Shown here piece by piece: positions 5,858 through 23,024 of a stretch of DNA of 51,318 nucleotides (the first letter of the stretch is position 1; the number at the start of each line of letters is the position of its first letter). The position numbers and the translations under genes are program-made. Origin of the DNA: an uncultured Bacteroidales bacterium (GTDB lineage: Bacteria > Bacteroidota > Bacteroidia > Bacteroidales > Marinilabiliaceae); NCBI GenBank assembly GCA_934725785.1, contig CAKVCS010000001.1, positions 1-51,318 of the forward strand, given 5' to 3'. The notes under the pieces were generated by a model. That model ran no database searches, was not told where the DNA came from, and saw only the letters and a program-made list of their open reading frames with translations.

Positions 5858-5887
5858 GCTCCGCCTTTAGCCTCACGCGTGTGCTGC

Positions 5888-6784: not shown

Positions 6785-6814
6785 TTTCTGTGTTATAATC
6801 TTTTCTTTCTCTTT

Positions 6815-7183: not shown

Positions 7184-7185
7184 CC

Positions 7186-7650: not shown

Positions 7651-7817
7651 CTCCCTGTTGCGCTTCCCTCTCCGCCTCCCCTCCGCGTCGCCGCCGGAGG
7701 AGTCAGAGAGCTTTTTTAACATTGCCTTTCCGAGTGTGAATTTACGCGATATATTTGCGTTCTCAAAATGGAAAAATTGCCGCTCCGCCTGTGGCGACGG
7801 CGCAAAAGAAAGAGGCA

Positions 7818-9146: not shown

Positions 9147-9204
9147 AAGTAGAACCTGCGTAGCTTCGCTTTCGTAAAAAGAATCATATCATAACCAGCA
9201 GCCG

Positions 9205-10107
9205 ATGTCACCCATAGCCCTTTTCGTCTATAACCGTCCCGATCACACGCGCCGAACTCTACAGAGCCTCGCTGCCGCCGACGGGGCTGAGCGGTCAGAC
9301 CTTTACATATTCGCCGATGGCCCGAGGGACTCCGACTCTGTGCCAGCGGTGGATGCCGTTCGCGAGCTGTGCCGTGCCGCGTCGGGCTTCGCGAGCGTCT
9401 CCGTCACCGAGCGGGAGGACAACGTTGGTCTGGCAGCCAACATACTTGGTGGCGTCAGCGATGTTATATCCCGCCACGGCCGGGTCATTGTCATTGAGGA
9501 TGATGTCAACGTCTCCCCGTTCTTCCTCAAGTATATGAATGCCGCTCTCGAGTTCTACCGAGGCAGGGGGGTCTTCTCCATTGGCGGGTACACGCCGGAC
9601 ATTTCCATCCCCGCGGATTATCCATACTCCACGTTTGTCATGCACCGCAACTGCTCCTGGGGCTGGGCCACGTGGAAGAGCGAGTGGGACAAGGTTGACT
9701 GGCAGGCCGCCACGTTCGACTCTTTTATCCGCAGCCCGTCTTTGCGCCGTCGCTTCAATGAGCCGGGCGATGACATGACGCCCTTCCTGCTCAGGTGGAA
9801 GACGGGAGCCCGGGAGATGTGGGACATCGTCTTCTCCTATGCGGCATTCCGGGCCGGAGAGCCGCACGTGTACCCGCGCAAGAGCCTCGTAAGGAATGTA
9901 GGGAATGACGGCACAGGCACACACGTGGCGCCGACGACTAAATATGACGCACCGCTCGCGGCAAGCGTAGGCTTGAACAATTTCTGCCCGGGGGTGGCTA
10001 CTAATCCCGCAATCGTCAAGGAGTTCCACAGGTTTTACTCCACATCGGCTTTCCGCAGGGTGGTCAATGCGTTCAAGAGGTGGAGATATGTGCTGTCAGG
10101 CCATTGA
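9205..10107 (+). CDS. GT-A fold glycosyltransferase (GNT-I-like)
   Basis: N-terminal FVYNRPDHTRRTLQSL plus the IVIEDDVNVSP (EDD) motif resemble the GnT-I/GT13-like GT-A layout. Confidence 0.5.
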   Translation: MSPIALFVYNRPDHTRRTLQSLAAADGAERSDLYIFADGPRDSDSVPAVDAVRELCRAASGFASVSVTEREDNVGLAANILGGVSDVISRHGRVIVIEDDVNVSPFFLKYMNAALEFYRGRGVFSIGGYTPDISIPADYPYSTFVMHRNCSWGWATWKSEWDKVDWQAATFDSFIRSPSLRRRFNEPGDDMTPFLLRWKTGAREMWDIVFSYAAFRAGEPHVYPRKSLVRNVGNDGTGTHVAPTTKYDAPLAASVGLNNFCPGVATNPAIVKEFHRFYSTSAFRRVVNAFKRWRYVLSGH

Positions 10108-10215
10108 CCTTACGCCAAGTCTCGTTTGAGGACTGCCGCCATTTGTCTTGCCTCGTCAGCCCGGGACCTGTCCGGAAGAGCGTTTTTTCTTGCCAGAGAG
10201 AGGCGGTGAGGGGTA

Positions 10216-11157
10216 TCACAGCCTCTCCACCTGCTCTGCGCTCAGCCCCGTACAAGCCGATATGGTCGCGGAGTCGATCCCCTTCTCTTTCATACCCTTT
10301 GCCACTCTCTCAATGCCGTCACGGATTCCCTGCTCTTTTCCGATTTCAATTCCCTGCTCTTTTCCGATTTCTTTTCCTATCTCAATCCCCTGCTCCTTAC
10401 CTATCTCCTTCCCAATCTCAATTCCCTGCTCCTTGGCGGTCTCCATCGAGTTCTTGATGTCCCTGTAGGCCTTGAGGCTGTCCTCGTAGGTCTTGAGCTC
10501 CGAGGGCGAGAACTGGGCTATCTCGGCCTTCTGGAACAGTTTGGTGAATACGCGGTCCCTGAGCGCCTTCGGCCTCCCCTCGATCCTGGCCATGTTCTTG
10601 AGCGCGTAGAGCCACTTGTCGCTCAGCGTCTCCAGCTCGTCGGCTCCCTTGTCGAACTTGCCAATCTCGATGTATTTGAATATCAGCTTGTCGTAGAAGG
10701 TCCTGTTCGTGGCCTTGTCCTGCAGCTCCACGTCGTGGCAGATTGCGCCGCTGTCGAACGCCTCGTCGTTGTACGCGAAGTTGAGCAGCGCGATGACGTA
10801 CACCTTGCTCAGCCTGAAGTCCCAGTCGGCCCCTTTCCTCGCCTGCTCGCGGATGGGGTATGTGGCGTAGTAGATGGACCTGTCCTTGAAGTACTTCTGG
10901 TACGCGTTCTGCATCTCGACGATGAACTTCTCGCCCCTCTCGTTTTGGCAGTAGACGTCGAAAATGGCCTTCCTCTCCATCAAGACGTCGCCCACGCTCT
11001 CGCCGTTGAGGTACATGACGTCCGTTACGACCTGCTCCCCCTCGAAGAGCGAGTTGAGGAAGTTGATGAGCAGGTCCTTGTTAGGCTTGGTCCCGAAGAT
11101 CCTCTTGAAGCCGAAGTCGGTCAGCAGGCTTATGTATTTCTCCTCCCGGTCTCGCAT
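10216..11157 (-). CDS. Rpn-family recombination-promoting nuclease / PD-(D/E)XK putative transposase
   Basis: YISLLTDFGFKRIFG ... DVYCQNERGEKFIVEMQNAYQ is the hallmark N-terminal PD-(D/E)XK core of this family. The start is set at ATG 11155-11157 (MRDREEKYISL). Confidence 0.8.
   Translation of the reverse strand: MRDREEKYISLLTDFGFKRIFGTKPNKDLLINFLNSLFEGEQVVTDVMYLNGESVGDVLMERKAIFDVYCQNERGEKFIVEMQNAYQKYFKDRSIYYATYPIREQARKGADWDFRLSKVYVIALLNFAYNDEAFDSGAICHDVELQDKATNRTFYDKLIFKYIEIGKFDKGADELETLSDKWLYALKNMARIEGRPKALRDRVFTKLFQKAEIAQFSPSELKTYEDSLKAYRDIKNSMETAKEQGIEIGKEIGKEQGIEIGKEIGKEQGIEIGKEQGIRDGIERVAKGMKEKGIDSATISACTGLSAEQVERL
10321..10440 (-). repeat. in-frame tandem repeat (24/36-nt units) inside the Rpn C-terminus
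   Basis: The DNA units GATTTCAATTCCCTGCTCTTTTCC and variants encode EQGIEIGKEIGK EQGIEIGKEIGK EQGIEIGK EQGIRDG. Confidence 0.85.
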
Positions 11158-11175
11158 GTCATCTCTGTTTTTGCC

Positions 11176-11183
11176 CAAAAGTA
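11176..11183 (-). promoter_or_regulatory. exact TAnnTTTG (-7) box upstream of the Rpn gene
   Basis: The minus strand reads TACTTTTG, 17-18 nt before the ATG at 11157. Confidence 0.4.
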
Positions 11184-11185
11184 GG

Positions 11186-11219
11186 AATAAAAAATGGCAA
11201 TGGCGCGATGCCATTGCCA
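11186..11219 (-). terminator. rho-independent terminator ending the six-gene vWA/tubulin/TerD operon
   Basis: Perfect 10-bp stem TGGCAATGGC / GCCATTGCCA (11195-11219) with a 5-nt loop, followed on the minus strand by TTTTTTATT. Confidence 0.75.
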
Positions 11220-11267
11220 GCAATATGGGTTGTTGAATTTTATCGACACGAGTCTCAGCGCGCCTGC

Positions 11268-11846
11268 CTATTTGTTATCTCTTAGTATTTCATTCACAAT
11301 GCGCTGGACGCTCTCATACTTCTCTCCGAGCTGCCGTTTCCTGTCCGCTCCGTTGCCGTAGATGCCTTTTATCACGTCTTTTGCCGTGTCATGGTCGCTA
11401 CCGCCGTCGCGCTCTTGCTGCCGGACGATGTCCGGGGCGTCCACCTCTTCTGCTATGTGAGCCTCCTCGCCGCTTTGCTTTGCGGCGGGTGCGGCGCTCT
11501 CTGCCTCGGTCGGGCTGCTGCACCCCTCTGCCGCGGTGGCTGGCGCCGTTGGCGATTCTGGCGTTATTGTTGTCTGTTTCGCAGGTGTTTCTATATGCTT
11601 GGTTTCCTGCGGGTTCGCTGTCAACGCCGATTCTGCGGGCCCGCGTTCCGGCCATAGGGCGAATGCCGCCACGCCGACGGCTACGGCCACAGCAGCTGCG
11701 GCGCATACGACAATAGCCGTGGATGGCCGCCCCTTCCGTGGAGCGGCGTCGGCTCTTTCCTCTTTGCTGAAGTCGAAAGACATGCCGCCGTTCTTCTTCT
11801 CAAAGTCGTATTTGCCTACGCTTCCAGCCTCTTTTTTCTGAGTCAT
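11268..11846 (-). CDS. single-pass membrane protein with a C-terminal CW_7 (Cpl-7) peptidoglycan-binding repeat
   Basis: TM segment AIVVCAAAAVAVAVGVAAFALW, then a low-complexity Pro/Ala/Thr/Glu linker. The C-terminus DVIKGIYGNGADRKRQLGEKYESVQRIVNEIL matches the CW_7 consensus (GxxGNGxxRxxxLGxxYxxVQxxVNxxL). The start is set at ATG 11844-11846. Confidence 0.7.
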   Translation of the reverse strand: MTQKKEAGSVGKYDFEKKNGGMSFDFSKEERADAAPRKGRPSTAIVVCAAAAVAVAVGVAAFALWPERGPAESALTANPQETKHIETPAKQTTITPESPTAPATAAEGCSSPTEAESAAPAAKQSGEEAHIAEEVDAPDIVRQQERDGGSDHDTAKDVIKGIYGNGADRKRQLGEKYESVQRIVNEILRDNK

Positions 11847-11853
11847 ATCCTTG

Positions 11854-12531
11854 CTATGCGTATATGTCGGCAAGAGTGGGCATGCCGCCGGTATAACCTG
11901 TCCCCATTGGCTCAAAGACCCATTCGCCCTCGTCGTTCAATATGATGCGGCCGGCCTCTATGGCCGTCTCGTCGGCGAATTTCTCACTCATGTTGAAGCG
12001 GCAGAGGCTCTCGCCGGTCTCCTCGTTTGTTATCGTTATGGCGGGCGACTCTACGGACTTGAATGTCTCAGTCTGGGCGTCGGGCTTGGCGTATATGGCG
12101 GCTCCGAACACGATGGCGCGAACCGACTCGCTCACCCTGTCAAGCACCACGTGCATGGTTTCGCAATTCTCATCGTCTGCGTCGTCGCCGGCCTCGTCTG
12201 GCGAGCCGATTACGGATGTGTCGGCCGAGACGGGCACCGTCATAGCCTTCCACGCTTTCTTGGTGCGGTGGGCCTGCAGGTTGAACGGCTCTATCTTGCC
12301 TTCTGTCACGTCATCCTCCGAGGATGGGCGCCAGCGGTTGTCCGAGTTGTAGTAGACAAAGTCCTCCCTGCGTGTCAATATGCCGTCTTCTCCCACCAGG
12401 AAGGCGCACACGTCAAGGTCTGCGTCGCCCTTCCACGTCAAGTCTACGCGTATCTTGTTCAGTCCCTCTTCTTTGCCGAAGTTGAATTTCTGCCCCTTTG
12501 CCAGTTCTTTGCCGAAGTTGAATGAGTTCAT
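11854..12531 (-). CDS. TerD-family stress protein
   Basis: LAKGQKFNF...IRVDLTWKGDADLDVCAFLVGEDG...EDFVYYNS ... acidic GDDADDE segment ... VFGAAIY ... WVFEPMGTGYTGGMPTLADIY is the canonical TerD pattern. Confidence 0.85.
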   Translation of the reverse strand: MNSFNFGKELAKGQKFNFGKEEGLNKIRVDLTWKGDADLDVCAFLVGEDGILTRREDFVYYNSDNRWRPSSEDDVTEGKIEPFNLQAHRTKKAWKAMTVPVSADTSVIGSPDEAGDDADDENCETMHVVLDRVSESVRAIVFGAAIYAKPDAQTETFKSVESPAITITNEETGESLCRFNMSEKFADETAIEAGRIILNDEGEWVFEPMGTGYTGGMPTLADIYA

Positions 12532-12544
12532 GTGCTTATGTTTT

Positions 12545-14902
12545 TTAGTCGTTTATATATTTTTCTGCCACTTGGCGCAGGGGGACGTATTCTATGCCGT
12601 ATTCGGCAAAGAGGGTGACTATCTGCCTTATGGTCTGCTTTTGCGCCTCTGTCATGTCCCCATTGGCGCCTTTGGCTATTTCGTCTATGAGTCTTTTGCT
12701 CTTTATGAGCGTCACGCACTCGTCCGCCATGTGCGAGTTGCGCTCGACGGTCGCGAAGTAACGCTTGGCTTCGCCCAGGCGCATGTCGCGCAGCAGCTTA
12801 TACCCGTTGCCCAGCATCTGTGGGCCGCGCTTGGGCGCAGTCTCTTTTTCGGGGGCGGGGGAGGGCTCGCCCGCGGTCTCTCCGATTGCCTTGACCGGTT
12901 CTCCTGGGGCGCTCTCTTCCGTCGCTTGTGGTGTCTCCTGGTCGTCCGTGCCGATACCTGTCAGGGTTTTCACGTAGTCGGTCGCGAGGGGCATCACTTG
13001 CAGTGTACATATCTTGTCTTTTATGGCGTTTGTCTGCAACGCCTGGTATGACACCCCCATCTCGGGTAGGCCCGGTTGAGCGTGCTGGTTGCTGCTGGCG
13101 AATATCAGGACCTGCCTCTTGGTGAAAAGGCTCACGTCGTTGACGTACACATATGGCAGAGACTGGGCTTCCATGTGGCAATATAGCGCGCCAAGTGACG
13201 GGATGCTTATGAAGCCGTATGGTTTAGCCCAGTCGACCGTGGCGTAGCGGCCAGCCTCCGACGCCGAGACTGAGGCGAACGCCGTGGCGAGCGAGTTCTT
13301 CCCAAGGCTCAGCAGGCGGGCGTATTCCGCCTCTATGCGCTGGGCGTACTCTGTCATCTCCTTTTTGAAGTGGACTATGGCTTTACCCTTGTCCACTATG
13401 TTTGTCGCATCTCTGAACGAGGTGAGCTCTGATCGCTCCAGCTCCATGTCGAGCCGGACACTCTCCGCTTTCAGCTTGGCGACCTCGGCCTCTAACTTTT
13501 TATACCTCTCGCTTTTCTCGGTGAGGATTAGGATTTCCTCGTTAGCTTTCAGCGCGTTGTCGCATATGGCGATAATCTTGTCGCATGCCGCGCTTTGGGC
13601 TTTCAGGCTCTCTATCTTGACCCTCCTGTTAGCCCCGCTGCCAGTCAGCCATTCCCATATCCTTGTCCACAGTCGACGGTTGTCGGCCTCGTCTTGCAGG
13701 GCGCAGGCTTCGTCGTCATGCCTCTTTTTGCCTTCCGCGGCCTTCTTTTTCTCGTTTTCGACCCAAGTCCGGAACTCTTCGGACTTCACGCCCCGCACGA
13801 GCCTCGCGTAGTTGCGCTTGAGTGTCTCGAACGCCTCGGTCGTTTCCGCCTGTTGCCGCGAGGACCCGCCGTGTGCGGCGGCTTCAGCCTCTTGAGCCGC
13901 TTTGCGCACCATGTCGCGGGTCAGGAGCGTCTCGCCCAGGGGGCTCTCCTTGCCCATCAGCGGGCCTATATGTTCCTTTATTATGTGGTCAACCTTGGCC
14001 GCTACGTTCTCCTCTCCCGCGGGGCTGCTGTAGTCTGGCTTTTTGAGTCTCGCCGCGAGGCCTTCCATTCTCTTGCGCAGGCCGGTGGGGTTGTCCTCAA
14101 TGTCGAGCGGGTCGTCCGAGCCCATGGGGCACTCGCCGTTCAGGCGAACCTCCACGAGGGCGCGGCTCAACGCCAAGCTCTGCATGCGCTCCACGTCGGG
14201 GGCGAAGTACATGCACTCTGCGTGACCTATGGAGAAGACGTGCGAGCTGACGTTGGTCGGCAGCGCGGCGTTCACCACAAGCCCGCACGTGGCGGGGTCC
14301 GACGCGAGCAGCATGAAGTCCGCCAGCACGCGCGGCAGGCGGAAGTCGTGATGCTCCTCGCCCGTGAATGACGCTCCGCCTTTGATGTTGCGCGTCTCGA
14401 CATACAGGGTGTAGGGCGCCTCCGACTCCGACGTGCGCTCAAGTATGTGCGCCAAGGCCTCCTCGGCCATGACTGACGTCACGTTCGCCGGCCTCTTGGT
14501 GTCATATCCCAGCACGACATGCCACACGGTCAGAGCCCCGAATCCGTTCTTGGGGTCGTTGCGCAAGGCCATGAGCCGTCTGAACGCGCTCTGGTCGAAG
14601 TCGTTCTCGCCATACGGGTTGTCAAGGAAGAAGAGGTTCAGCTTGGCAGTGACTGTCGCTATGCCCGCCGCGCCCATGAACTGCGCTATGTGGTTGGCCA
14701 TCCCGCACCCCATGTCGTCGTCCGCCTCGGTGTCCGAGCCGGGTATGCTGAATTCATACCCCTCGCCCTCGTCGCGGATAAGGCCGTAGGAGACCAGCAT
14801 GTCCGCCGATGCTGTGCGCGGGACGCACTCCTCCGCTATCTGGCGCGCTATGCTGTCGGTCTCGCTCTTGCCGCTGACCACTATGAAATGTGTGCGAGAC
14901 AT
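12545..14902 (-). CDS. 785-aa hypothetical protein with a central coiled coil (partner of the tubulin-like GTPase)
   Basis: Long ORF in an operon with 13-15 nt gaps to its neighbours. Residues about 330-520 are Glu/Lys/Ala/Arg-rich heptad-like sequence. I recognised no catalytic motif. Confidence 0.6.
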   Translation of the reverse strand: MSRTHFIVVSGKSETDSIARQIAEECVPRTASADMLVSYGLIRDEGEGYEFSIPGSDTEADDDMGCGMANHIAQFMGAAGIATVTAKLNLFFLDNPYGENDFDQSAFRRLMALRNDPKNGFGALTVWHVVLGYDTKRPANVTSVMAEEALAHILERTSESEAPYTLYVETRNIKGGASFTGEEHHDFRLPRVLADFMLLASDPATCGLVVNAALPTNVSSHVFSIGHAECMYFAPDVERMQSLALSRALVEVRLNGECPMGSDDPLDIEDNPTGLRKRMEGLAARLKKPDYSSPAGEENVAAKVDHIIKEHIGPLMGKESPLGETLLTRDMVRKAAQEAEAAAHGGSSRQQAETTEAFETLKRNYARLVRGVKSEEFRTWVENEKKKAAEGKKRHDDEACALQDEADNRRLWTRIWEWLTGSGANRRVKIESLKAQSAACDKIIAICDNALKANEEILILTEKSERYKKLEAEVAKLKAESVRLDMELERSELTSFRDATNIVDKGKAIVHFKKEMTEYAQRIEAEYARLLSLGKNSLATAFASVSASEAGRYATVDWAKPYGFISIPSLGALYCHMEAQSLPYVYVNDVSLFTKRQVLIFASSNQHAQPGLPEMGVSYQALQTNAIKDKICTLQVMPLATDYVKTLTGIGTDDQETPQATEESAPGEPVKAIGETAGEPSPAPEKETAPKRGPQMLGNGYKLLRDMRLGEAKRYFATVERNSHMADECVTLIKSKRLIDEIAKGANGDMTEAQKQTIRQIVTLFAEYGIEYVPLRQVAEKYIND

Positions 14903-14917
14903 GTGTCCTCTGTCGTT

Positions 14918-17821
14918 TTATCGTTTGTCTTGCTTTGTGCGCAATTTAATCTCGCTCTCCACGAGGCTCGCTGTAGCCTCGTACACATCGTTGTGGCTCT
15001 CCAAGGCGTCAACCTCCTCTGGGTTCATATTGGGGTATGCGTACATGTCCTTGTATCGGCTGTTTCCAATGCCTCTGAGGCTGTCGAGAGTCTCTTTTAC
15101 GAAGTCTGAGCCGCGCTCGTTCTTTATCTCTTTGATTCTCTTTTCAACATCTTTGCGCAAATTGTTCAGCTCAAACTGCTTGTACGCCACGTTACGCCGC
15201 TCCCCAAGGTTTAGGCGGTTGTTGTCTATAGCGTTGCCCTTGTCTGACGTCATCCAATATTGCTTTTTCTCCTTGTCGAAGCGTATAATAGGCAGCCCGT
15301 CTTGCATGGTGAAGCAGAAGGCCTGCGTCCACATGTCGAGTGCTTCGTCAGCCTTCTCGGCTGGCCACATTGAGAACTTCATCGACTCGCGCAATGAGTC
15401 CATTCCCGTATCAATAGAGCACGAGAGGCCGCTTGCCTCGTTCATCCGGCGGTTGTATTCGTCCTCATATGTCTTGAAGTTGTTCACAGCGAAAACAGGC
15501 ACCGAAGACTCCACCATCATGATATACACTCGGTCCTTCTGACGGGTTGATGCGTATTTAGGGTCTGTTATGTCATATTTCAAAGCCGCTTTAACAGAGG
15601 CCTCCTTCATTATCGTGTTTGCTTGGTCTGGTACTCCAACCAGAACCTGGCGCGCACGGTTGACATTCTCTGGCATCTTGCCGTGGTAGTTTATTGTCCA
15701 CATGGGGGTGGCCAGGTCGAGGATATATTTTGCGTTGCGGATGACGTTCTCTGTCCCCATTTCTGTTAGAACCTCCTCTATGTTCTTGCTCAGCGCTGCC
15801 GACACGGGCTGCGTGGTGCCCGCATAGTGCATCACCCTGTTGGCCGTCTCGCTTGTCGACTCCTTAAGCCACTCTGTAAGGCTGCGACCCGACGGCATCG
15901 AGTCCGATGTGCAGAAGTCGTTCCACATCTGTTGGCTGATGGCGGGGTTTATGCCGTTCAACGCGTTAATGTGCAGGTATACCTGGAATTTCGATTTTGG
16001 TCTGCACGAGTTGCGCAGTCTCACCACTTCGCTGTCAAATTCGCCGCCTATCTGCCTCATTATCTCCATCTTGGCTGCCACCAACGCCTTGTAGGCTGCC
16101 ACGTCCTCCTTAAGCTTTGTGTAGAACAGGATGGCCAGCTGATGCCTCTTCAGGTCCATCGTGTCGCGTATGCGCGAGTTCACGGTGTTGCTCAAGTCCT
16201 CGGCCTCGTCGCTCAGGAATCGTCCGAACAGCCCGTGACACCCCGCCAACTCTTTGATCCAGTCGGGACACTCCCTCAGCCTGGCCTCCAACTCTTTGCT
16301 CTCGCTCACCATCTCGCCGAGACACGAGTCCATTAGGGCGTCCAGCGCCGTCAGGAACGCTGCCGAGGCTGCCAGTCCGCCGCCCGCGGGGTCGCATATG
16401 ATTTTGCGGATTTCCTTCTCGAGCAGCCGCTGCGTGTTGGCGAGCTTGCTTGCGCAGTTCGCCTCGGGGGCCGTGTCGCTGCTGGCCATGTTGAGACGGT
16501 TCACGATGTCGTCCGCCTCCGTCCCCTTCTCCACCTCGAAGGGGCGCAATGCGCCGAGGTCGCATATGGCGTCGGTGACGTCGTCGTGCAGGTGGCCGCC
16601 GTTCTCCCTTATCTTCACGTCCTCGCGGTCCACGAAGTTGTCGCACAGGGTGGATCCCACCTTTTCCGTGTTTAGCAGTTTGTTCGTCAGCCGCTCCGCC
16701 ACGGCGTAGGCCGTAGCGATGCCCATGGTGTCACTGTCATACACCAGCTCGGCCGCGCTCAACGAGTTAGCCCAGGCGCATTTTTGTGATATTTTGAAAT
16801 TTATGTGGTTTGCTATTATGTTATCCTTCATCTCGTCAGCATGATCTCCCATGTCGCCCGATGGAAGGAAGGCACATTTTGCCACGTTATCCAGTAGGTC
16901 GTCAAGCCCATTGAACGTGTTGCCGGAACTGCTGACGTTGTTTATCAAGTATGCGAATTCGAACGGCTTATCCGTTATTGTGTTGTTGCCGAATGGTATT
17001 AGTTTTTTCGCCGCGTCTTTCCCGTCGAAATTACCGAATATGAAGTCGAGGTCGCGCAGGGTGCCGTAGGTGTTGTAGTTGACGTTGAACGATCCAGTAG
17101 GTGTTATTTGCTTGTATATGTCTGGCATAACAACCCACGGTATCACGAGGCAGTCGTTCGTCATTCCGAGGCTTTTCTTTACCCTGTCTATCATTAATAG
17201 CACGTCTATCAGCATTCCGGACCCTGTGCCTCCACTCATAGAGCAAATGACGTTGACGGTTGTTTTGGACGGTATGCCAGGCTGCTTTCCCTGTCCCAGC
17301 TGGTATTTGGAGTCGGGAGGAAGTGGTTCGCGTGTGTAGTTCAGGGCGTTTAATATGCGAATTTCTATCTCCTTTCGGTTATATCTGGCAATGAAGCATC
17401 CGCTTGAGCGTACCTGTCCCGCACCTGTGCTCTTTATTGCGCCCAGAGCGCCCACATTATCGAATGGATCTTTCGGCATCCAGGTGAATTCCGACTCTTG
17501 GCTGCGGTATATCTCAAGCGCGTTTTGAACCGTGACGCACTTTATCTCGCTTGCCGACAGGCGCACCTCGCGGCTCTTTATCTCCTTCACGTTGGTCACC
17601 TTGCCGTCGACGACCGAGTATGTCACCCCGTTGGCGTCGTTGCCCGCCTTGGCTACGGCCAGGTTGCCTATGCCGTCCTGCGTGTCTATCGCCAGGAAAC
17701 CAATCATAGGCTGCGGAATCTCGCCATACGCGTCTATGAAGTGCCTCTTTATCTTTACGAGTGTCTTCGCTCCAGTGCCGCCAATGCCCACGTAGAGCGT
17801 CCTGTTTATGCTTATCGCCAT
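14918..17821 (-). CDS. tubulin/FtsZ-superfamily GTPase (Tubulin_2-like), 967 aa
   Basis: N-terminal LYVGIGGTGAKT (T1-like glycine loop), STGAGQVR, and the tubulin signature SMSGGTGSGM (GGTGSG encoded at 17216-17233). Confidence 0.75.
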   Translation of the reverse strand: MAISINRTLYVGIGGTGAKTLVKIKRHFIDAYGEIPQPMIGFLAIDTQDGIGNLAVAKAGNDANGVTYSVVDGKVTNVKEIKSREVRLSASEIKCVTVQNALEIYRSQESEFTWMPKDPFDNVGALGAIKSTGAGQVRSSGCFIARYNRKEIEIRILNALNYTREPLPPDSKYQLGQGKQPGIPSKTTVNVICSMSGGTGSGMLIDVLLMIDRVKKSLGMTNDCLVIPWVVMPDIYKQITPTGSFNVNYNTYGTLRDLDFIFGNFDGKDAAKKLIPFGNNTITDKPFEFAYLINNVSSSGNTFNGLDDLLDNVAKCAFLPSGDMGDHADEMKDNIIANHINFKISQKCAWANSLSAAELVYDSDTMGIATAYAVAERLTNKLLNTEKVGSTLCDNFVDREDVKIRENGGHLHDDVTDAICDLGALRPFEVEKGTEADDIVNRLNMASSDTAPEANCASKLANTQRLLEKEIRKIICDPAGGGLAASAAFLTALDALMDSCLGEMVSESKELEARLRECPDWIKELAGCHGLFGRFLSDEAEDLSNTVNSRIRDTMDLKRHQLAILFYTKLKEDVAAYKALVAAKMEIMRQIGGEFDSEVVRLRNSCRPKSKFQVYLHINALNGINPAISQQMWNDFCTSDSMPSGRSLTEWLKESTSETANRVMHYAGTTQPVSAALSKNIEEVLTEMGTENVIRNAKYILDLATPMWTINYHGKMPENVNRARQVLVGVPDQANTIMKEASVKAALKYDITDPKYASTRQKDRVYIMMVESSVPVFAVNNFKTYEDEYNRRMNEASGLSCSIDTGMDSLRESMKFSMWPAEKADEALDMWTQAFCFTMQDGLPIIRFDKEKKQYWMTSDKGNAIDNNRLNLGERRNVAYKQFELNNLRKDVEKRIKEIKNERGSDFVKETLDSLRGIGNSRYKDMYAYPNMNPEEVDALESHNDVYEATASLVESEIKLRTKQDKR

Positions 17822-17846
17822 AGGGTTTATGTTTTTTCCTTTCTCT

Positions 17847-18770
17847 TTATGACAGTTGTATCTTGTTCTTCGTCGTGTTGTCCGTCGCCGTCAGTGGTGC
17901 GTCACTGTACTGCGTCTTGCTCGCCGAGAGCGTGAACCCTCCCCCGGCCACCCTTATTTCCTTGCGGCCGCGCCGTCCGGGCTTCATCCGCAGGGTGCTG
18001 GTGAACGCCGGAGACGTCACGCAGAGTGTCCTCCCCGTGAAGAAAGCGGAGGCCAGGCTCTGCTTGGCAGCCCTGCTCGTCAAGACGACCTCGGCGAAGC
18101 CGCCCATCCTGACAGTCTTGGGCCCATATATGATGCGCCCCGCCTGGTCGGTCACGACCACGCTCTTGCGGGCCGTCGGGCCGAACGTCCGCCTGTGGAG
18201 CGCCAGGCGAGCAAGGAAGATGACGGCGGCCATGGCGCACAGGGTTATTAGCTGCCCCTTGGCAAGGGGGTTCATGTCCTTGTCGAAGTATATTGTCCAT
18301 TGCATCAGCTTCGCGCCCTCGCTCGCCTCCATGCCGTTGACGCAGGCCATGCCGTGCGGCCGCATGACGAGGTAGCCCTGGTGCTTGCCCCCCTCGGCCT
18401 TGGGCAGGAAGCGGAAGCCCACCCCGACCTCGCGCGTCCTCCCCCCGTCCGCCGCCGATATGCTTATCACGTTGCCGCTGGCGCGACGGCCGTCAATGGT
18501 CACCTCGAGCACGTCTTCCGGGACGGGCGCGCCATCATTGTCTGTCACCACGAGGTCCACCGCCGCTCCGTCATTCACCGCGTCGTCGTTGAAGGTCAAG
18601 GCCATCCTCTTCACGAGGCTTGTGGTGTCGGCGTCCGACCACAGGAAGCCGTCGTGCCAGCTCGTCGTGCCGAGCGTCACTCGCTCCATGCCGTCGTCTT
18701 CCGAACACGAGGCCGCTGTCGAGGCCGTGATGGCCGCGACGGCCATCACGCGCAGAATCTTGGTGCTCAT
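17847..18770 (-). CDS. lipoprotein-like bitopic membrane protein
   Basis: Lipobox-like signal AITASTAASC|SEDD, an internal TM segment LITLCAMAAVIFLARLAL, and a basic C-terminal tail. In the same operon. Confidence 0.55.
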   Translation of the reverse strand: MSTKILRVMAVAAITASTAASCSEDDGMERVTLGTTSWHDGFLWSDADTTSLVKRMALTFNDDAVNDGAAVDLVVTDNDGAPVPEDVLEVTIDGRRASGNVISISAADGGRTREVGVGFRFLPKAEGGKHQGYLVMRPHGMACVNGMEASEGAKLMQWTIYFDKDMNPLAKGQLITLCAMAAVIFLARLALHRRTFGPTARKSVVVTDQAGRIIYGPKTVRMGGFAEVVLTSRAAKQSLASAFFTGRTLCVTSPAFTSTLRMKPGRRGRKEIRVAGGGFTLSASKTQYSDAPLTATDNTTKNKIQLS

Positions 18771-18802
18771 CTTGCTCTGTGTGGGTGTTTTTTCGTGGGG
18801 TG

Positions 18803-19789
18803 TCAGTCTTTGAACGAGATGTTCACGGTGGGGTAGTGCTTGTTTATGCAGCGGATCTCAATTGCCTTGCTCAGCAGGAACGTGAAGCGCGGCAGCCCCT
18901 GAGCCTCGGCCTCTATCGTCCACAGGTGATCTTCGGGAGGGTCCGCTGTGAGCTTCCGGGCGTACAGGCGGATGGCTTTGCCGCCGTCTTCCGTGGTCAC
19001 CGTCTCCTGGCGTGCTATGGCATACAGCTCGTCGTCCGACTTGAGCGTTATCTTCGCCCCGCCCGGGTCGCCGTCTATGGCTATGTCCACGTGATCCCCG
19101 TCTCTCACGGCGTAGACCGTCGAGTGCCTCAGCTTCACGTGGTTGATGTTCACGTCGGCCGTCTCCACCGTCCACAGCTGGGCGTCTTGCCTCTCCACCT
19201 CGCGCTCTATGTCCTTGGCGGCGGCGGCCCCGGTCAGCATCACGTAGAATCCGTAGCTCGTGGGGCTGGTGCTGCGCTCCCACCTGCCTATGGCGTCGAA
19301 TAGTCTGCCGCGGGTCTGCGAGAAGTTGGCCCCGTCGGTCATCAGGTAGAAGTATGTGTCGCCTTTGCGCTTGCCATAGTTGCTATAGAAGTCGTCGAAG
19401 GGGACGTATATCTCGGTGTGGCAGTCGTCCTCGAGCTTCAGGCCGTCCACGAATTTGCAGATGGCCTCTTTGCCCTCGGCTGTCGCCCTTTCCTTTTTGC
19501 GTGTCAGCTTGTGCCCGCTGTCGGTCCACGCCACCACCTCGAGCGTGGCCGTCTCGTCGTTCACGTTGCGAATGGCGCGTTTCAGGTTGCCCGTCACTTC
19601 GCCCCATATCGGCTTCATGGATCCCGTCACGTCCAGGTAATACGCCCTTGCCTCCACGCCTTGAGCGCAGGCCGCCCCAGGGAAGGAGGCCGCTGCCAGC
19701 GTCGCCGCGGCGCATGCGCCGAAGATTGCCGCCTGTCCGCGTCTTTTTGCGAGTGCGGCAAGGGCTCGCAGTGTGTGTTTCCGAGGCAT
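18803..19789 (-). CDS. secreted von Willebrand factor A (vWA) domain protein (TerY-like)
   Basis: The start is set at ATG 19787-19789 (MPRKHTL...). Signal-like AAIFGACAAATLAAASFPGAACA|QG, followed by a MIDAS-like YYLDVTGSM. Confidence 0.6.
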   Translation of the reverse strand: MPRKHTLRALAALAKRRGQAAIFGACAAATLAAASFPGAACAQGVEARAYYLDVTGSMKPIWGEVTGNLKRAIRNVNDETATLEVVAWTDSGHKLTRKKERATAEGKEAICKFVDGLKLEDDCHTEIYVPFDDFYSNYGKRKGDTYFYLMTDGANFSQTRGRLFDAIGRWERSTSPTSYGFYVMLTGAAAAKDIEREVERQDAQLWTVETADVNINHVKLRHSTVYAVRDGDHVDIAIDGDPGGAKITLKSDDELYAIARQETVTTEDGGKAIRLYARKLTADPPEDHLWTIEAEAQGLPRFTFLLSKAIEIRCINKHYPTVNISFKD

Positions 19790-19810
19790 GGAGATTCTGG
19801 TTTTGTGTTC

Positions 19811-19850
19811 TTCACAAATTTCAATAAAAAAAAACACTATCCAAATTTTA
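19811..19850 (-). promoter_or_regulatory. Bacteroides-type promoter for the six-gene operon (TTTG - GTG T9 spacer - GAAATTTG)
   Basis: The minus strand reads AAAATTTGGATAGTGTTTTTTTTTATTGAAATTTGTGAA. The -7-like box (19815-19822) lies 26 nt before the ATG. Confidence 0.45.
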
Positions 19851-19884
19851 TTGACCTGCGTGGCTTCGGCCCTGCGCTAAAGCG

Positions 19885-19924
19885 GCGAGGCGCGGGCTTG
19901 CCAGTCAACAAGCCCGCGCCTCGC
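19885..19924 (-). terminator. GC-rich hairpin downstream of the TagF-like gene
   Basis: Perfect 16-bp inverted repeat GCGAGGCGCGGGCTTG / CAAGCCCGCGCCTCGC with an 8-nt loop. The U-tract is weak. Confidence 0.5.
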
Positions 19925-19957
19925 GCCGGTCTGTGTGCCGCCTCCCGTGGCGGGGGG

Positions 19958-21193
19958 TCACGCGTATCCCTCTCCGCCCAGTATGGCCGCCATTATGTTC
20001 TCGCATGCCGTGCGCCCGCCCGGCGGTGTCAGCATGCTGGCGTAGAAATTGTCCCTCTCCGCCCTCAGCGGGTCCTGGCCGCCCACCACCACCTCGTCAA
20101 TGAACCGCTCTATCTCCCGGGCCGAGCCGGCCTTGTAGTGCAGGTCGTAGGCGCGGCGGGCGAAGTCGGACAGGTTTCCGATCCGCTGACCCTCCTTCAC
20201 CATGTAGAGGGCGGGCCGCCTCGTGTAGAGGTATTCTATGATGAACGAGCTGCAGTCGTGTATCATGGCGTCCGAGTGCATGAAGAGCGACGTGTATTTG
20301 CCGTCCTCGGCCTGGCAGTTCGCCGCCTCGGCCCATCGGGTGTAATACCTGTCGGTGCGCTCACGCCCCCATACGCGGTTCAGCTTGGCGCGCAGCAGTG
20401 GGTGGGGCTTGAATGCGAACTGCACGGTGTCGGCGTGACGCTCCGCGATTTCCAGCATCTCCTCGCCCACGCTCAGGAATGTCGACAGGTTCAGCCCGCC
20501 GTCGTCCTCTATGCTGTGGTGGGGGGCGTATATCACACGCTTTTTCCGCGCGGCCTGCGTCCGCCACGGGTCGGGCCCGCCTTGCGCCCCGCTCATCAGC
20601 TCGTCTTGCATCGGCAGTCCCGTCACCACCGAGTTGCGCGCCCTGTTGTCCATCATGCGCGCTGCGCCGTCGACGCACTCCTGGTTCTCGAAGAAGACCA
20701 TCCACGCCTCGTTGAGAAACGGCAGGTTGAGCCCCCACGTGGTCTCGGTCGTGTGGAACGCGTAGTCTATGAAGCACGTCAGCGTGCGCGCGTTGCGCCA
20801 GTAGGCGTACCCCCCCCTCTCGGTGAATATGGCGTAAGGCTTCTGGTAGAACGCCACGTCGGCCTCCAGATGGTCGCGCGGCCCCATCTCGCGAAATTCG
20901 TAGCCCTTGGCGGCGAGGTGCCTGCGCAGGGCCTGGGTGTCCGCCTCGTCGAGGGTGGGGGGGATGGATATCGTCGGGCGGAAGCGGCTGTGGTCCTTCA
21001 TTGCGGCGTAGAGGCTCTCCGTCTTCCATGCCGAGAGGCTGTTTATCAGGAACTCTACGCTCACCACCTCTTTGCCGCGCATCGCCTTGACCAGGGCGGC
21101 CTCGTCGTGCGCGCGCTCATACCTGGCGTGGGCCACGGCCTTGGCGACGGCGCGCGTCAGCTTGTTGTCGAGTATCTTTCGCAGCGCACTCAT
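19958..21193 (-). CDS. CDP-glycerol/CDP-alditol glycerophosphotransferase family (TagB/TagF-like)
   Basis: VIYAPHH ... FKPHPLLR ... LFMHSDAMIHDCSSFIIEYLYTRRPALYM is the typical TagF-family C-terminal catalytic region. Confidence 0.75.
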   Translation of the reverse strand: MSALRKILDNKLTRAVAKAVAHARYERAHDEAALVKAMRGKEVVSVEFLINSLSAWKTESLYAAMKDHSRFRPTISIPPTLDEADTQALRRHLAAKGYEFREMGPRDHLEADVAFYQKPYAIFTERGGYAYWRNARTLTCFIDYAFHTTETTWGLNLPFLNEAWMVFFENQECVDGAARMMDNRARNSVVTGLPMQDELMSGAQGGPDPWRTQAARKKRVIYAPHHSIEDDGGLNLSTFLSVGEEMLEIAERHADTVQFAFKPHPLLRAKLNRVWGRERTDRYYTRWAEAANCQAEDGKYTSLFMHSDAMIHDCSSFIIEYLYTRRPALYMVKEGQRIGNLSDFARRAYDLHYKAGSAREIERFIDEVVVGGQDPLRAERDNFYASMLTPPGGRTACENIMAAILGGEGYA

Positions 21194-22230
21194 CGGCTCT
21201 TGCGCAGTATCTCTATCGTGCGGCGTATGGCGTCGCGCATCTCGTATCGGGGCTCGAAGCCCGTCCTCTCCAGCTTACTCCCGTCCATCAGGGCCACCGT
21301 GGCCTTGCTATATCCCGCGGCCTCGGCCTCCGAAGGCAGGTCGAACACCACCTTCCTGCCGCACTGCTCGGCGCACATGGCGGCGAAGTCCTTGAGCCTC
21401 ACGTCGGTCTTGCGGCTGCTCACGTTGTACGCCTCGCCGTCCTCGCCGTTCAGCAATATGTGGAGCATGGCGGCAGCGGCGTCCGCCACGTATGTGTATG
21501 AGAATCTCTGCTCGCCGTTGCTCTTCAGCACTATGTCCTCGCCTGCCAGGGCCTTGAGGATGAACTGCGACGACGCCTTGGTGTCCGACGACAGCATCGT
21601 CGGGCCGAATACACGGCTCAGGCGCGCTATGCGCACGCTGACGCCGTACTCTTTGGCGTACGACTGGCACATGGCCTCACTCGCTCGTTTCGACTCGTTG
21701 TAGCACGACCGTGCCGTGCCCAGGTTCAGGGAGCCGGTGTAGTCCTCGGTGAAGACGTCCGCGCCCCGGGCGTTGCCGTATATCTCGACGCTCGAGGGGT
21801 AGAGCACCCTCGCCCCCGTGGCCCTCGCAAGCTCGAGCGCGCCCCTCGCGCCCATTATGTTGGTCATCATGGTCTCGACGGGGTGTTCCGAGTAGGCCAG
21901 TGGGTGGGTGTTGCTCGCCAGGGGTATCACGTAGTCGGGGCGCAGGGCCTCCGGCAGGGGCGATGTGACGTCTTGCTCAACTATTCCGAATGCCTCCTCG
22001 CCTGCGTGGTCGTCCAGCCTCCCGCTCAGCCGGCTCTTGTCGCGCACCACGGCCGTCACGCGGCACCCAGCGCTCAGCAGGGCGTCGGTCAGCATCACGC
22101 CCAGCAGGCCGCCGGCGCCCGTTATCACGGCGTGCTTGCCCCGGAGGCCCTCCGATCCCCTCACGCTGGCCACGTAAGCCATGTCGTCCGCGTATTCGGC
22201 GCAGCCCTTGGCTATCTTGTGCTTTTCCAT
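21190..22230 (-). CDS. extended SDR, NAD-dependent epimerase/dehydratase/reductase
   Basis: Rossmann motif VITGAGGLLG. There is a 4-nt ATGA overlap with the TagF-like gene. Confidence 0.75.
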   Translation of the reverse strand: MEKHKIAKGCAEYADDMAYVASVRGSEGLRGKHAVITGAGGLLGVMLTDALLSAGCRVTAVVRDKSRLSGRLDDHAGEEAFGIVEQDVTSPLPEALRPDYVIPLASNTHPLAYSEHPVETMMTNIMGARGALELARATGARVLYPSSVEIYGNARGADVFTEDYTGSLNLGTARSCYNESKRASEAMCQSYAKEYGVSVRIARLSRVFGPTMLSSDTKASSQFILKALAGEDIVLKSNGEQRFSYTYVADAAAAMLHILLNGEDGEAYNVSSRKTDVRLKDFAAMCAEQCGRKVVFDLPSEAEAAGYSKATVALMDGSKLERTGFEPRYEMRDAIRRTIEILRKSR

Positions 22231-22251
22231 TGCCTTATGTTCTGTTTAGGT

Positions 22252-22974
22252 CTATTTCAGCCACTTGTCCTCTCCCTTGGTGAGGTATCCTTTGAAGAGT
22301 TCCAGGTCGTCCTTCGTCGTCAGCTTTATGTTCTTGTCGCTGCCGGCCGCGAAGTGCAGGCGGACGCCCAGCTGGACCATCATCGTGTTCGTGTAGTTGG
22401 ACCCGCCGATGCCCACGCCCGTCTCGAACGCCTCGCGGTACTTGTCGCGAAGCAGGTCGTAGCGGTAGGCCTGGGGAGTGCTCACGCGGCGCAGGGTCTC
22501 GCGCGGGATGTAGCGCGTGGTGGTGCTCTCGTCCGCCTCGTCGACTATGAATATCTGCTCGTTGTAGGGCATCGAGGTCACCGCGTTGCCGTACGCCTTG
22601 GCTTTCGCCACCACGTCGGTCAGCACCGTCGGCTCCACCATGGGGCGTATGCCGTCGTGGATTATCACGATGTCGTGTCCCGCGCACATCTCGGCGAGGC
22701 TCTCGACGCCGTTCCGTATGCTCTCCTGGGCCGAGGACCCGCCAGCCACAATGTAGCGCAGCTTTGTTATGTTGAACTGGTTGGCGTAGGCCCTCACCAT
22801 CTTCTCCCACCCGTCTATGCACACCACGACGATAGCGTCAACCTCCTTCTGCCTCTCGAATCCCTCGAGGGTGTAGATGAGGACGGGTTTGTCGAAGACG
22901 TTGAGGAACTGCTTGGGGATGTCTTGCCCCATCCTGTTGCCGGAACCCCCGGCTATTATCAAGGCTACGTTCAT
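22252..22974 (-). CDS. IspD/TarI-family cytidylyltransferase (likely alditol-phosphate cytidylyltransferase)
   Basis: MNVALIIAGGSGNRMGQDIPKQF (the P-loop-like motif of IspD/TarI). The start is set at ATG 22972-22974. Confidence 0.8.
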   Translation of the reverse strand: MNVALIIAGGSGNRMGQDIPKQFLNVFDKPVLIYTLEGFERQKEVDAIVVVCIDGWEKMVRAYANQFNITKLRYIVAGGSSAQESIRNGVESLAEMCAGHDIVIIHDGIRPMVEPTVLTDVVAKAKAYGNAVTSMPYNEQIFIVDEADESTTTRYIPRETLRRVSTPQAYRYDLLRDKYREAFETGVGIGGSNYTNTMMVQLGVRLHFAAGSDKNIKLTTKDDLELFKGYLTKGEDKWLK

Positions 22975-23024
22975 TCTCTTTGGTCTGATGTTCTGTTTAT
23001 ATGTTCTGCGCATTGTGTGGTGGG

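Follow-up and report, generated by a model that had tools for sequence, protein, structure and literature searches.

In the window studied here, the whole 51,318-nucleotide stretch of contig CAKVCS010000001.1 from an uncultured Bacteroidales bacterium (GenBank assembly GCA_934725785.1), six open reading frames (ORFs) on the minus strand at 11268-19789, named g1 to g6 in the order of transcription, form an operon that is a composite of two modules. Module A comprises g1-g4, which encode a vWA protein, a connector with a lipoprotein signal, a 967-residue tubulin-like protein and its partner; it makes the operon a member of the FtsZl1-vWA class. Module B consists of the C-terminal tail of g4, a TerD protein (g5) and a transmembrane (TM) protein ending in a CW_7 repeat (g6). 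The composite nature of the operon is shown by the distribution of the two modules: the first is found in dozens of genomes with varied genes behind it, while the second is confined to a small clade of these cassettes and reappears downstream of a very different operon. As to function, we tentatively favour a GTP-dependent stress or conflict device that would span the envelope and carry swappable outputs.

A conserved vWA and tubulin-like core with varied outputs

Relatives of g3 were gathered from 185,579 species genomes, one per species, with two peptide patterns taken from the g3 alignment. This yielded 107 confirmed relatives, from which 80 loci were kept, almost all of them in metagenome-assembled genomes (MAGs) of Bacteroidales; the set also includes three loci from Flavobacteriales, one from a Fibrobacteraceae and several from records with clearly unreliable titles. 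The genes of these loci were identified by iterated profile searches on six-frame ORFs, called as the longest ORFs. Because the survey relied on two peptide patterns and crude ORF calls, the following counts are approximate and phylogenetically non-independent: g1 was found in 76 of the 80 loci, g2 in 77 and g3 in all 80, in a constant order and on the same strand. The arrangement in which the vWA gene lies two genes upstream of g3 is thus conserved.

The third gene, g3 (14918-17821, minus strand), is an FtsZl1/Tubulin_2 protein of 967 residues and a member of the tubulin superfamily by its fold and its nucleotide-binding loops. Residues 9-377 (16691-17797) matched Pfam Tubulin_2 with 140 bits against a cutoff of 27 (E = 1.5e-40). 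Loops T1 (GGTG, 17771-17788) and T4 (GGTGSG, 17216-17233) are both in place. In 22 full-length homologues, T1 residues G12, G14, G15, T16 and G17 are invariant, T4 residues G197-G198-T199-G200-S201-G202 are invariant or nearly so, and an AIDT motif (T2) and a T3-like GAGQVRS.G motif are likewise conserved. Structure models were built with AlphaFold2 (AF2) on shallow alignments of 22 sequences for g3 and 12 for g4. With the g3 model (pLDDT 86.5), every one of the 42 Foldseek matches in the PDB at E <= 1e-3 was FtsZ, tubulin, BtubA, CetZ or TubZ. These matches covered about 370 aligned columns with a target-normalised TM-score (TMt) of about 0.48, which fits a partial FtsZ match. Past residue 385 the model continues with a helical/coiled-coil region (residues 389-703) containing a 69-residue helix and then with a C-terminal alpha/beta domain, the same order of helical and C-terminal domains as in the FtsZl1 layout of Makarova and Koonin (PMC2875224). 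The fold, the Tubulin_2 score and the T1 and T4 loops all agree with the sequence-only reading of this stretch, an earlier annotation made from the letters and their ORFs, which had named g3 a tubulin/FtsZ-superfamily GTPase. The "GTP-driven filament" that it went on to propose is not established: in FtsZl1 proteins the T6-H7 elements and the tubulin-type C-terminal domain are not recognisable (PMC2875224), and no T7-like NxDxxD/E catalytic loop could be assigned in the g3 sequence.

These features also bear on whether the operon could be an alternative or auxiliary system for cell division or morphogenesis, in which g3 would act as a wall-tethered paralogue of FtsZ. The tubulin/FtsZ fold of g3, its intact T1 and T4 loops and the presence of a wall anchor in the same operon would suit such a role, but neither the FtsZ C-terminal domain nor a T7 loop is recognisable in g3, the two-pattern scan found the system in a small minority of Bacteroidales, no division genes lie consistently nearby, and the protease and nuclease variants described below do not fit. 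We consider this explanation highly improbable.

The first gene, g1 (18803-19789, minus strand), encodes a protein of 328 residues that is predicted to be secreted to the periplasm; a cleavable signal peptide is followed by a vWA domain and by a C-terminal domain rich in beta structure. Its metal ion-dependent adhesion site (MIDAS) would be formed by D53-V-T55-G-S57 (19619-19633), T125 and T151-D152-G153. D53, S57, T125 and T151-D152-G153 are invariant in 25 orthologues, and position 55 is S or T. The window copy itself matched no Pfam family at E <= 0.1, its mature region reaching VWA_3 at E = 0.15, whereas 7 of the 25 orthologues did match Pfam VWA (best 1e-6), three matched VWA_CoxE, two VWA_2 and one VWA_3, and the profile of the g1 family matched vWA structures (4cn8, 5.6e-8; integrin alpha-L I-domain, 0.07). 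Membership therefore rests on transitive evidence, and it is at the level of the family that sequence comparison identifies g1 as a vWA protein with an intact MIDAS. The first assignment, made from a MIDAS-like DVTGSM, stands in this sense, through the invariant site and the Pfam and PDB matches of the family, but not for the window copy, which fails in Pfam.

The second gene, g2 (17847-18770, minus strand; 307 residues), would encode a lipoprotein or bitopic connector: a lipoprotein signal with Cys22, a periplasmic domain, a TM helix at residues 169-187 (18210-18266) and a cytoplasmic tail of about 115 residues. Judged by motif, Cys22 follows a hydrophobic stretch and is kept in all 26 aligned copies (the window and 25 orthologues). 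Neither g2 nor g4 had a match in Pfam, NCBIfam, PHROGs, PADLOC or the PDB sequences, and sequence-profile searches of the PDB with the two returned coiled-coil and TM noise only; nor did PADLOC, PHROGs and NCBIfam give anything useful for g1-g4 as a set. Fusion of g1 and g2 into one ORF is seen in 36 loci, across three architecture classes, while 40 loci keep the two genes apart. This is strong evidence, from gene structure, that their products would act as one transmembrane unit. No signal or TM segment was predicted in g3, g4 or g5. The alternation of extracytoplasmic and cytoplasmic proteins noted earlier is in line with these predictions, and an envelope-spanning assembly fits them.

The position after g3 is where the loci diverge. 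A g4 homologue (590-980 residues) occupies it in 30 loci and another protein, g4B (1110-1280 residues), in 45; g4B and residues 450-645 of g4 have a domain of about 200 residues in common (hhalign probability 94%, E = 1.4e-7). g4B has a papain-family domain (6e-21) and two predicted TM helices, and its catalytic Gln, Cys, His and Asn are each conserved in at least 93% of 41 aligned sequences; the protease is predicted to be active. Five g4 homologues end in a transglutaminase-like domain. Further genes are found downstream in some loci: a DA1-like zincin (4 loci), a membrane-anchored Endonuclease_NS (3), an EEP-family (endonuclease/exonuclease/phosphatase) lipoprotein (2), a six-TM Ion_trans channel (2), DUF6804 membrane proteins (5) and a small lipoprotein (5).

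In the window, g4 (12545-14902, minus strand) has 785 residues. According to its AF2 model (pLDDT 82), its core (residues 1-697, 12812-14902) is made of an N-terminal alpha/beta domain, a helical region with a helix of about 68 residues, an alpha/beta domain at residues 450-648 and a disordered linker, beyond which lies a helical tail domain of about 90 residues (88 residues, 698-785; 12548-12811), delimited from the model and by mapping of homologues. The family is small: the g4 profile, run exhaustively with HMMER over 1.84 billion representative proteins, retrieved only 93 relatives, and a re-search of the protein database with the g4 alignment added no further homologues. What had been described as a "785-aa coiled-coil protein" is instead a conserved three-domain partner whose tail tracks TerD and CW_7 exactly, as shown below. 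We also considered g4 as a degenerate tubulin paralogue that would make a BtubA/B-like pair with g3. Its domain order parallels that of g3, and the top five Foldseek matches in the PDB are tubulins. However, the resemblance of its N-terminal domain is weak and mixed: all Foldseek matches in the PDB have E >= 0.04 and include vWA I-domains and small GTPases, a BFVD search leaned weakly to vWA, hhalign gave the N-terminal domains of g4 and g3 a probability of 18%, and an N-terminal SGK..T motif is not conserved beyond the closest clade.

The same layout was found on the Thermus oshimai megaplasmid pTHEOS01 (3712-13363 of the locus), where a vWA protein with a TM helix comes first, followed by a 911-residue tubulin-like protein that matches the g3 profile in the N-terminal as well as the C-terminal part, and then by a 677-residue hypothetical protein. 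This cassette is flanked by TROVE (Ro60-like) and brxL (BREX-type Lon-like protease), with no other BREX genes in view. Several MAGs have more than one cassette, and one locus (L050, 3055-12778) has two tubulin-like cassettes in tandem. Two others (L069, 18995-20191; L070, 19025-20239) have an additional Tubulin_2 gene of 399-405 residues (2.8e-39), located some 6 kb downstream of their main cassette, and a further locus (L083) has HipBA near the cassette. Searches of plasmid and phage collections detected no full-length g3 relative, which places the Bacteroidales cassette outside the known mobile elements. Matches to the g3 N-terminal domain were seen only on Thermus, Meiothermus and cyanobacterial plasmids, with one weak match on a phage-labelled contig. 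Among the records with unreliable titles, three loci (L004, L008, L009) are 88-91% identical over 22.8 kb, yet their record names come from three phyla, which argues for mislabelled or mis-binned MAG records and not for cross-phylum transfer. Four more (L002, L012, L013, L031) likewise have doubtful titles, the titles of all seven being Bifidobacteriaceae, Clostridium sp. CAG:343, Pseudobutyrivibrio, Eggerthellaceae, Mycobacteriaceae, Gastranaerophilales and Methanobrevibacter.

A tail, TerD and CW_7 module that recurs in a second operon type

TerD and CW_7 genes are part of the cassette in only 8 of the 80 loci, which are the closest relatives of the window (56-69% g3 identity). The g4 tail, with the signature G.F.EAK..FA..M..C..LIKSKR.I, is complete in exactly these 8 loci. 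It is truncated in one close relative (L006), which has neither TerD nor CW_7, and absent from all other g4 proteins, so that the three elements occur together and, in that relative, were lost or truncated together. Precomputed Pfam labels revealed the same six-gene order in three further metagenome assemblies; a metagenome scan with TerD gave one marginal locus, its peptide patterns being too specific. In the window and its nearest relative the six genes stand among polysaccharide genes and Rpn, in a second genus (L086) among PEPCK, MutS2 and ZapA, and in a third (L082) among starch-utilisation genes, PRK and RF3. Because the surrounding genes differ in this way between genera, the six genes travel as a unit.

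The tail was also found outside the g4 family. Eight of the 93 relatives matched it alone, and the five that we looked up were all traced to contigs, which are independent of one another; three of these matches are proteins of 590-650 residues with unrelated N-terminal parts and the tail at the C-terminus. On the five contigs the next gene is always a TerD of the g5 subfamily (E down to 2e-81), and on those that extend further it is followed by one more TerD and then by a g6-like TM-CW_7 protein, which in one contig (L090) also has a TerB domain (4.7e-9).

L091 (526-12412) and L090 (2-7981) show a second operon type of low GC content (33-39%), with the order MIDAS-like TM protein, 114-residue membrane protein, 552-residue protein, 1286-residue protein, 592-residue tail protein, TerD, TerD and CW_7; in L091 an SH3 protein follows the CW_7 gene. 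None of its large proteins has a Pfam family, and the g1-g4 profiles detected none of the upstream proteins of L091. The TM protein of L091 has a MIDAS-like motif (YVDMSSGM...LMTDY). The 552-residue protein has IGGTG, LDTD and GGTGAS in tubulin order and aligns weakly with g3 around the T4 loop; its top Pfam match is Tubulin_2 (E = 2.1e-4, 21 bits, below the cutoff of 27 bits), and by these motifs it is probably tubulin-like. An Hsp70-like N-terminus, suspected by eye in the 592-residue tail protein, was supported by neither PDB nor Pfam and was dropped. As the triad of tail, TerD and CW_7 is joined to two very different operons, both apparently with tubulin-like and vWA-like genes, the linkage is recurrent and not an accident of a single clade.

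Chance juxtaposition of six unrelated genes is refuted by these conservation data, and we give it next to no probability: the six-gene order is kept at 56-69% g3 identity in at least four genomic contexts, g1 and g2 are fused in many loci, and the triad is repeated in the second operon type. The sequence-only reading had named chance, in the form of a neighbourhood conserved nowhere else, and a failure of the profile assignments as the two outcomes that would overturn it. Gene order was found conserved in dozens of genomes, and the profile searches supported Tubulin_2, TerD and CW_7 directly and vWA for the family.

The fifth gene, g5 (11854-12531, minus strand), encodes a cytoplasmic TerD-domain protein of 225 residues. 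It scored 118.9 bits against Pfam TerD (cutoff 25.3; 2.4e-34) and matched the solved TerD proteins of Klebsiella (2KXT/2KXV, 5e-14) and Streptomyces (3IBZ, 1.4e-10). Its acidic segments DLDVCAF and GDDADDE retain the DLD and GDD.DDE motifs and align with the Ca-site regions of TerD; g5 would be a likely Ca2+-responsive element. The sixth gene, g6 (11268-11846, minus strand), encodes a membrane protein of 192 residues counted from MTQKK, with a cytoplasmic N-terminus of about 43 residues, a TM helix (11661-11717), a periplasmic linker rich in Pro, Ala and Thr, and a CW_7 repeat (11283-11390). The repeat scored 47.5 bits against Pfam CW_7 (cutoff 25; 1.4e-12), and residues 153-188 align with each of the three repeats of Cpl-7 lysozyme (5I8L, 4CVD), including the G.(Y/W)GNG core; it is predicted to be periplasmic and to bind peptidoglycan. 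Both assignments had been made before and lie well above the Pfam cutoffs.

The N-terminus of g6 carries a duplicated motif, YDFEKKNGGMSFDFSK (11763-11810), which resembles a TerD hairpin. All 12 g6-like proteins have such a duplicated aromatic-x-hydrophobic-x-Lys motif starting at residues 10-15 (FHLEKNVGNRFEIEK in L091), which mirrors the N-terminal hairpin of TerD proteins (FNFGKELAKGQKFNFGK); in the first 60 residues of background ORFs it occurs in 1.45%. From this shared motif we infer that the g4 tail may recognise the same hairpin on both TerD and the CW_7 protein, and we regard the tail as a putative adaptor for the TerD/CW_7 module.

The clear TerD match leaves a further explanation to consider, namely that the operon is a divergent form of classical Ter resistance to tellurite, metal or oxidative stress, with TerD at its centre and all other genes as lineage-specific accessories. 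The TerB domain fused to the CW_7 protein in one contig of the second operon type points in this direction, as do the TerY-type vWA proteins of ter clusters. However, Pfam and NCBIfam searches detected a single TerD and no TerC, TerB, TerA/Z or TerW/X in the operon, and its vWA protein is secreted, unlike TerY. TerD is moreover absent from 72 of the 80 related cassettes, which makes it an add-on and not the core. We regard this explanation as improbable, if somewhat less so than a division system.

Transcription signals and composition of the operon

With start codons picked from the sequence, the intergenic gaps from g1 to g6 are 32, 25, 15, 13 and 7 nt, the same range of 7-32 nt from which a single operon had been proposed. 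The start of g1 was placed at the ATG at 19789 (MPRKHTL...); the mechanical ORF reaches 19837 and opens at a GTG within the promoter region. The promoter-like motif (19815-19845, minus strand) was read from the sequence and consists of TTTG (19845-19842), a spacer of 19 nt and GAAATTTG (19822-19815), ending 26 nt before the g1 ATG. The Bacteroidetes -33/-7 promoter consensus is TTTG...TAnnTTTG, and the motif with GAAATTTG agrees with it at 7 of 8 positions, which makes it a plausible candidate for the operon promoter. A sigma-70 promoter scan, whose coverage does not extend to the Bacteroidetes promoter type, gave nothing at 19811-19850.

At the other end, the terminator scan and folding located a terminator-like hairpin with a U-tract at 11185-11219 (minus strand). 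The hairpin (11195-11219) is GC-rich, has 10 bp and is followed by UUUUUU; it folds with -17.8 kcal/mol (z = -4.1), and none of 200 shuffled sequences folded equally well, in keeping with the strong terminator proposed earlier. A second strong RNA hairpin (19882-19926, minus strand; 45 nt, -43.6 kcal/mol, z = -5.1, again equalled by none of 200 shuffles) lies after the upstream glycerophosphotransferase-like gene. It closes that gene and sets the operon apart. An Rfam search of the window found no RNA family.

The operon has a GC content of 58.1% compared to 60.2% in the surrounding 27 kb, and g3 has 53.7%, with 5 of its 48 lines of 60 nt below 45%. GC at the third codon position (GC3) is 64-78% in g3-g6 vs 80-93% in neighbouring genes. 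The low GC once claimed for parts of the operon, with about 35-45% in sampled lines of g3, was thus an overstatement, and a strong compositional anomaly as a sign of recent transfer was rejected, the overall difference being about 2 points only. An accessory origin had been argued from low GC together with the neighbouring Rpn gene; the adjacency is real, but GC is only slightly below that of the flanks and the pairing with Rpn is limited to the nearest relative, so this makes a weak case.

Surroundings of the operon in the window

Directly after the operon terminator lies an Rpn/PDDEXK_2 gene (10216-11157, minus strand; PDDEXK_2 236 bits), in which C-terminal KEIGKEQGIEIG-type repeats yield spurious FliH-like matches. 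It also follows the operon in the closest relative, represented by a genome (L001) and a metagenome contig (L089) with identical coordinates, probably from a single organism; in other genera it does not. Upstream, a same-strand cluster (19958-26786, minus strand) comprises a dCache_1 sensor, an ORF at 25422-25829 whose counterpart in L089 is FKBP_C, LicD, a Polysacc_synt_3 flippase, an NAD-epimerase and the Glyphos_transf-like gene. It looks like a locus for a teichoic-acid-like or phosphocholine surface polysaccharide and is syntenic in L089, with the strong hairpin between cluster and operon.

About 7 kb from the operon is a low-GC island (27103-37737; 45% vs about 60% in the flanks) encoding SspB, SspC, SspD, a PbeA-like PLD/helicase and a PbeC/SMC-like ATPase, which looks like a phosphorothioation-type defence system. 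As its end adjoins a tRNA-Leu(CAA) gene (37655-37737, minus strand), it was probably integrated. Three co-directional genes close the window (47351-51318, plus strand). The first encodes 568 residues with an N-terminus (NPYRTLGV...) that is J-domain-like by eye and has no Pfam or PADLOC match, the second a secreted protein of 309 residues with a weak DruC match (3.7e-5), and the third an Hsp70-like ORF (GIDLGTTNS) cut by the window end. Together the three may constitute a conflict system of Hsp70 type, comparable to those of Kaur et al. 2020 (PMC7159879).

Possible function

Our leading though tentative reading is that the operon encodes a stress or conflict device that would cross the envelope, depend on GTP and have an accessory role towards phage, toxin or damage, and not one in cell division. 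In such a device, g1 and g2 would together make up a single receptor across the membrane, with a vWA site that binds a ligand in the periplasm. Ligand binding at the MIDAS would change with something that happens outside the cytoplasm, for instance damage to the envelope or an encounter with a phage or toxin, and the cytoplasmic tail of g2 would pass the signal to g3 and g4. There, g3 would bind GTP and form a membrane-proximal scaffold with g4, whose position would serve as an output socket. In other clades the socket would hold a papain protease, a transglutaminase-like domain or a zincin, or act through downstream periplasmic nucleases or an ion channel. In the clade of the window it would hold the tail domain, which would recruit TerD, likely as a Ca2+-responsive element, and the CW_7 protein, and the latter would cross the inner membrane and so link the scaffold in the cytoplasm with the cell wall. 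The proposed direction of the signal and a role of Ca2+ are inferences. We favour an accessory stress or conflict role because the socket swaps outputs, the distribution is patchy and sometimes multi-copy, the g4 family is tiny, related tubulin-vWA systems are read as conflict systems, and there are links to Ter. Neighbours of conflict type include BrxL and TROVE in Thermus, HipBA in one locus (L083), and Rpn and the Ssp island in the window.

Several observations weigh against this interpretation. In three genera, the six-gene operon lies amid housekeeping or carbohydrate-metabolism genes and not in defence islands. A search of PADLOC-DB v2, which covers known anti-phage defence, gave no meaningful match for the operon proteins (best scores LmuB 0.077 and PD-T4-6 0.0044, the latter on a low-complexity linker), and the searched literature holds no experimental data on any FtsZl1 system. 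Since the T6-H7 elements and the tubulin-type C-terminal domain are not recognisable, polymerisation of the g3 family is uncertain. As g4 has no enzymatic domain, the output in the window would be an anchoring and Ca-binding module only. Part of the variable downstream genes, for example RuvC and UDG, may be unrelated neighbours, the tubulin-like and vWA-like calls in the second operon type are below threshold, and the survey counts share the approximations stated above.

The main rival is a constitutive machine for membrane remodelling or envelope architecture, as Makarova and Koonin proposed, in which the tubulin-like protein would give the inner membrane its shape or make it bud, for example into vesicles or compartments or in local wall-membrane tethering, and no threat would be sensed; the vWA protein, lipoprotein and CW_7 protein would then be structural anchors and TerD a Ca2+ cofactor. 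g3 does belong to a cytoskeletal superfamily, the accessory parts are nearly all membrane or periplasmic proteins, and the peptidoglycan anchor is analogous to the OmpA-type partners of 2010. The housekeeping neighbours in several genera, the surface-polysaccharide cluster that precedes the operon on the same strand in the window and its nearest relative, and the effect of ter genes on cell morphology (PMC4633105) are also consistent with it. Against it stand the patchy distribution and tiny g4 family, the several divergent copies in some genomes and the variation of the surrounding genes between genera; proteases, nucleases and a channel swapped at one position are hard to fit to a single structural role. 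Remodelling is thus the less likely explanation, with roughly half the weight of a conflict role, and the two are compatible.

A more speculative and rather unlikely extension is that Ter proteins such as TerD and TerB are Ca2+-responsive adaptors on scaffolds from the FtsZ/tubulin superfamily. This operon would then be a trans-envelope immune or repair machine, in which a vWA-triggered tubulin-like polymer would be clamped by the tail to TerD and, via the TerD-hairpin mimic on the CW_7 protein, to the cell wall, the socket taking proteases, nucleases or channels elsewhere. If true, this would define a class of tubulin-based conflict systems outside the GTPase-centric ones, and would explain the filamentation caused by ter gene expression (PMC4633105).

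The operon joins two enigmatic families. FtsZl1/Tubulin_2 is the most divergent branch of the tubulin superfamily, with no experimental function in the searched literature fifteen years on, and Ter proteins are widespread and clinically associated, their mechanism having been obscure for decades. Together with the second operon type, the operon provides a recurrent and ordered link between them: tail, TerD and TM-CW_7 downstream of vWA and tubulin-like genes. In gut Bacteroidales, a single conserved core that spans the envelope is paired with interchangeable outputs of protease, nuclease, channel or Ter type, a pattern typical of conflict systems. This has a bearing on how phages and hosts, and bacteria among themselves, interact in the gut, where Segatella copri and Bacteroides caccae are cultured carriers.

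Comparison with known systems

The core of the operon was already predicted in 2010 and 2020. New are the tail-TerD-(TerB)-CW_7 module, its recurrence with tubulin-like and vWA genes, the TerD-hairpin mimic and the survey of outputs in Bacteroidales, for none of which the searched literature holds a description; nor did literature on tubulin-like proteins with defence, TerD or vWA contain a characterisation of an FtsZl1-vWA/TerD system.

The partners of FtsZl1 listed by Makarova and Koonin (2010) are vWA proteins, OmpA-type peptidoglycan binders, a GTPase and kinases, for which they proposed membrane remodelling (PMC2875224). Their supplement contains a cassette of Bacteroides caccae with BACCAC_02056 (hypothetical, 535 residues), 02057 (FtsZl1) and 02058 (cysteine protease, 1152 residues). 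The combination that the sequence-only reading could not place is therefore, for g1-g4, the FtsZl1-vWA system. The CW_7 anchor, which had seemed hardest of all to place, is an analogous anchor and not an oddity, since peptidoglycan binders of OmpA type were noted as FtsZl1 partners in 2010. The operon resembles these systems in its adjacent secreted or membrane vWA protein with an intact MIDAS, its peptidoglycan binder and its lineage-specific membrane proteins. It differs in having no P-loop GTPase, Ser/Thr kinase or OmpA and in using a CW_7 repeat as the binder. The 2010 paper makes no mention of TerD (0 occurrences), of a tail adaptor or of the g4 family, and the upstream gene in Bacteroides was not annotated there as vWA (PMC2875224).

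The GAP1-N2 GTPase-centric systems with tubulin and vWA components were read by Kaur et al. (2020) as conflict systems with a cytoskeleton-like assembly at the membrane or cell wall (PMC7159879). Like the operon, they have tubulin-domain proteins with coiled-coil or helical C-termini, vWA proteins that are membrane-bound or extracellular and have beta-rich domains, domains that bind the wall, and a variable set of effectors. Their defining components, however, are an FNIII-repeat protein and a GAP1-type TRAFAC GTPase bearing zinc ribbons, and they were reported from Firmicutes and Actinobacteria; that paper mentions TerD solely as a domain of other systems that binds nucleotide derivatives (PMC7159879). 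Domain searches found no GTPase, zinc-ribbon or FN3 family in the six operon proteins, and because GAP1 GTPase and FNIII protein are lacking, the operon is not a GAP1-N2 system.

Canonical ter clusters (terZABCDEF/terXYW) are known from IncHI2 plasmids, Yersinia and Klebsiella. They include vWA proteins (TerY), and ter genes confer resistance to phages and colicins. The operon shares with them a TerD with acidic Ca-site segments, a vWA gene nearby and, in the second operon type, TerB (L090). It differs by the absence of TerC, TerA, TerZ and TerW, by a periplasmic vWA protein and by a TerD that is added to a tubulin-like core; the lack of TerC, TerB and TerA/Z rules it out as a canonical ter operon. 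The CW_7 repeat of g6 aligns with those of the Cpl-7 lysozyme of pneumococcal phage Cp-7, in which three repeats target the lysin to Gram-positive walls, whereas g6 has a single repeat, an inner-membrane anchor and no catalytic domain and belongs to a Gram-negative bacterium. With BtubA/B, TubZ, PhuZ and CetZ, g3 has the nucleotide-binding fold in common, BtubA, TubZ and CetZ2 being among its best Foldseek matches. Those proteins have about 300-450 residues, a C-terminal activation domain and proven filaments, in contrast to the 967 residues and unrelated C-terminal domains of g3. Taken as a whole, the operon would be closest in its working to the tubulin systems of FtsZl1-vWA and GAP1-N2 type, with an added module of Ter type.

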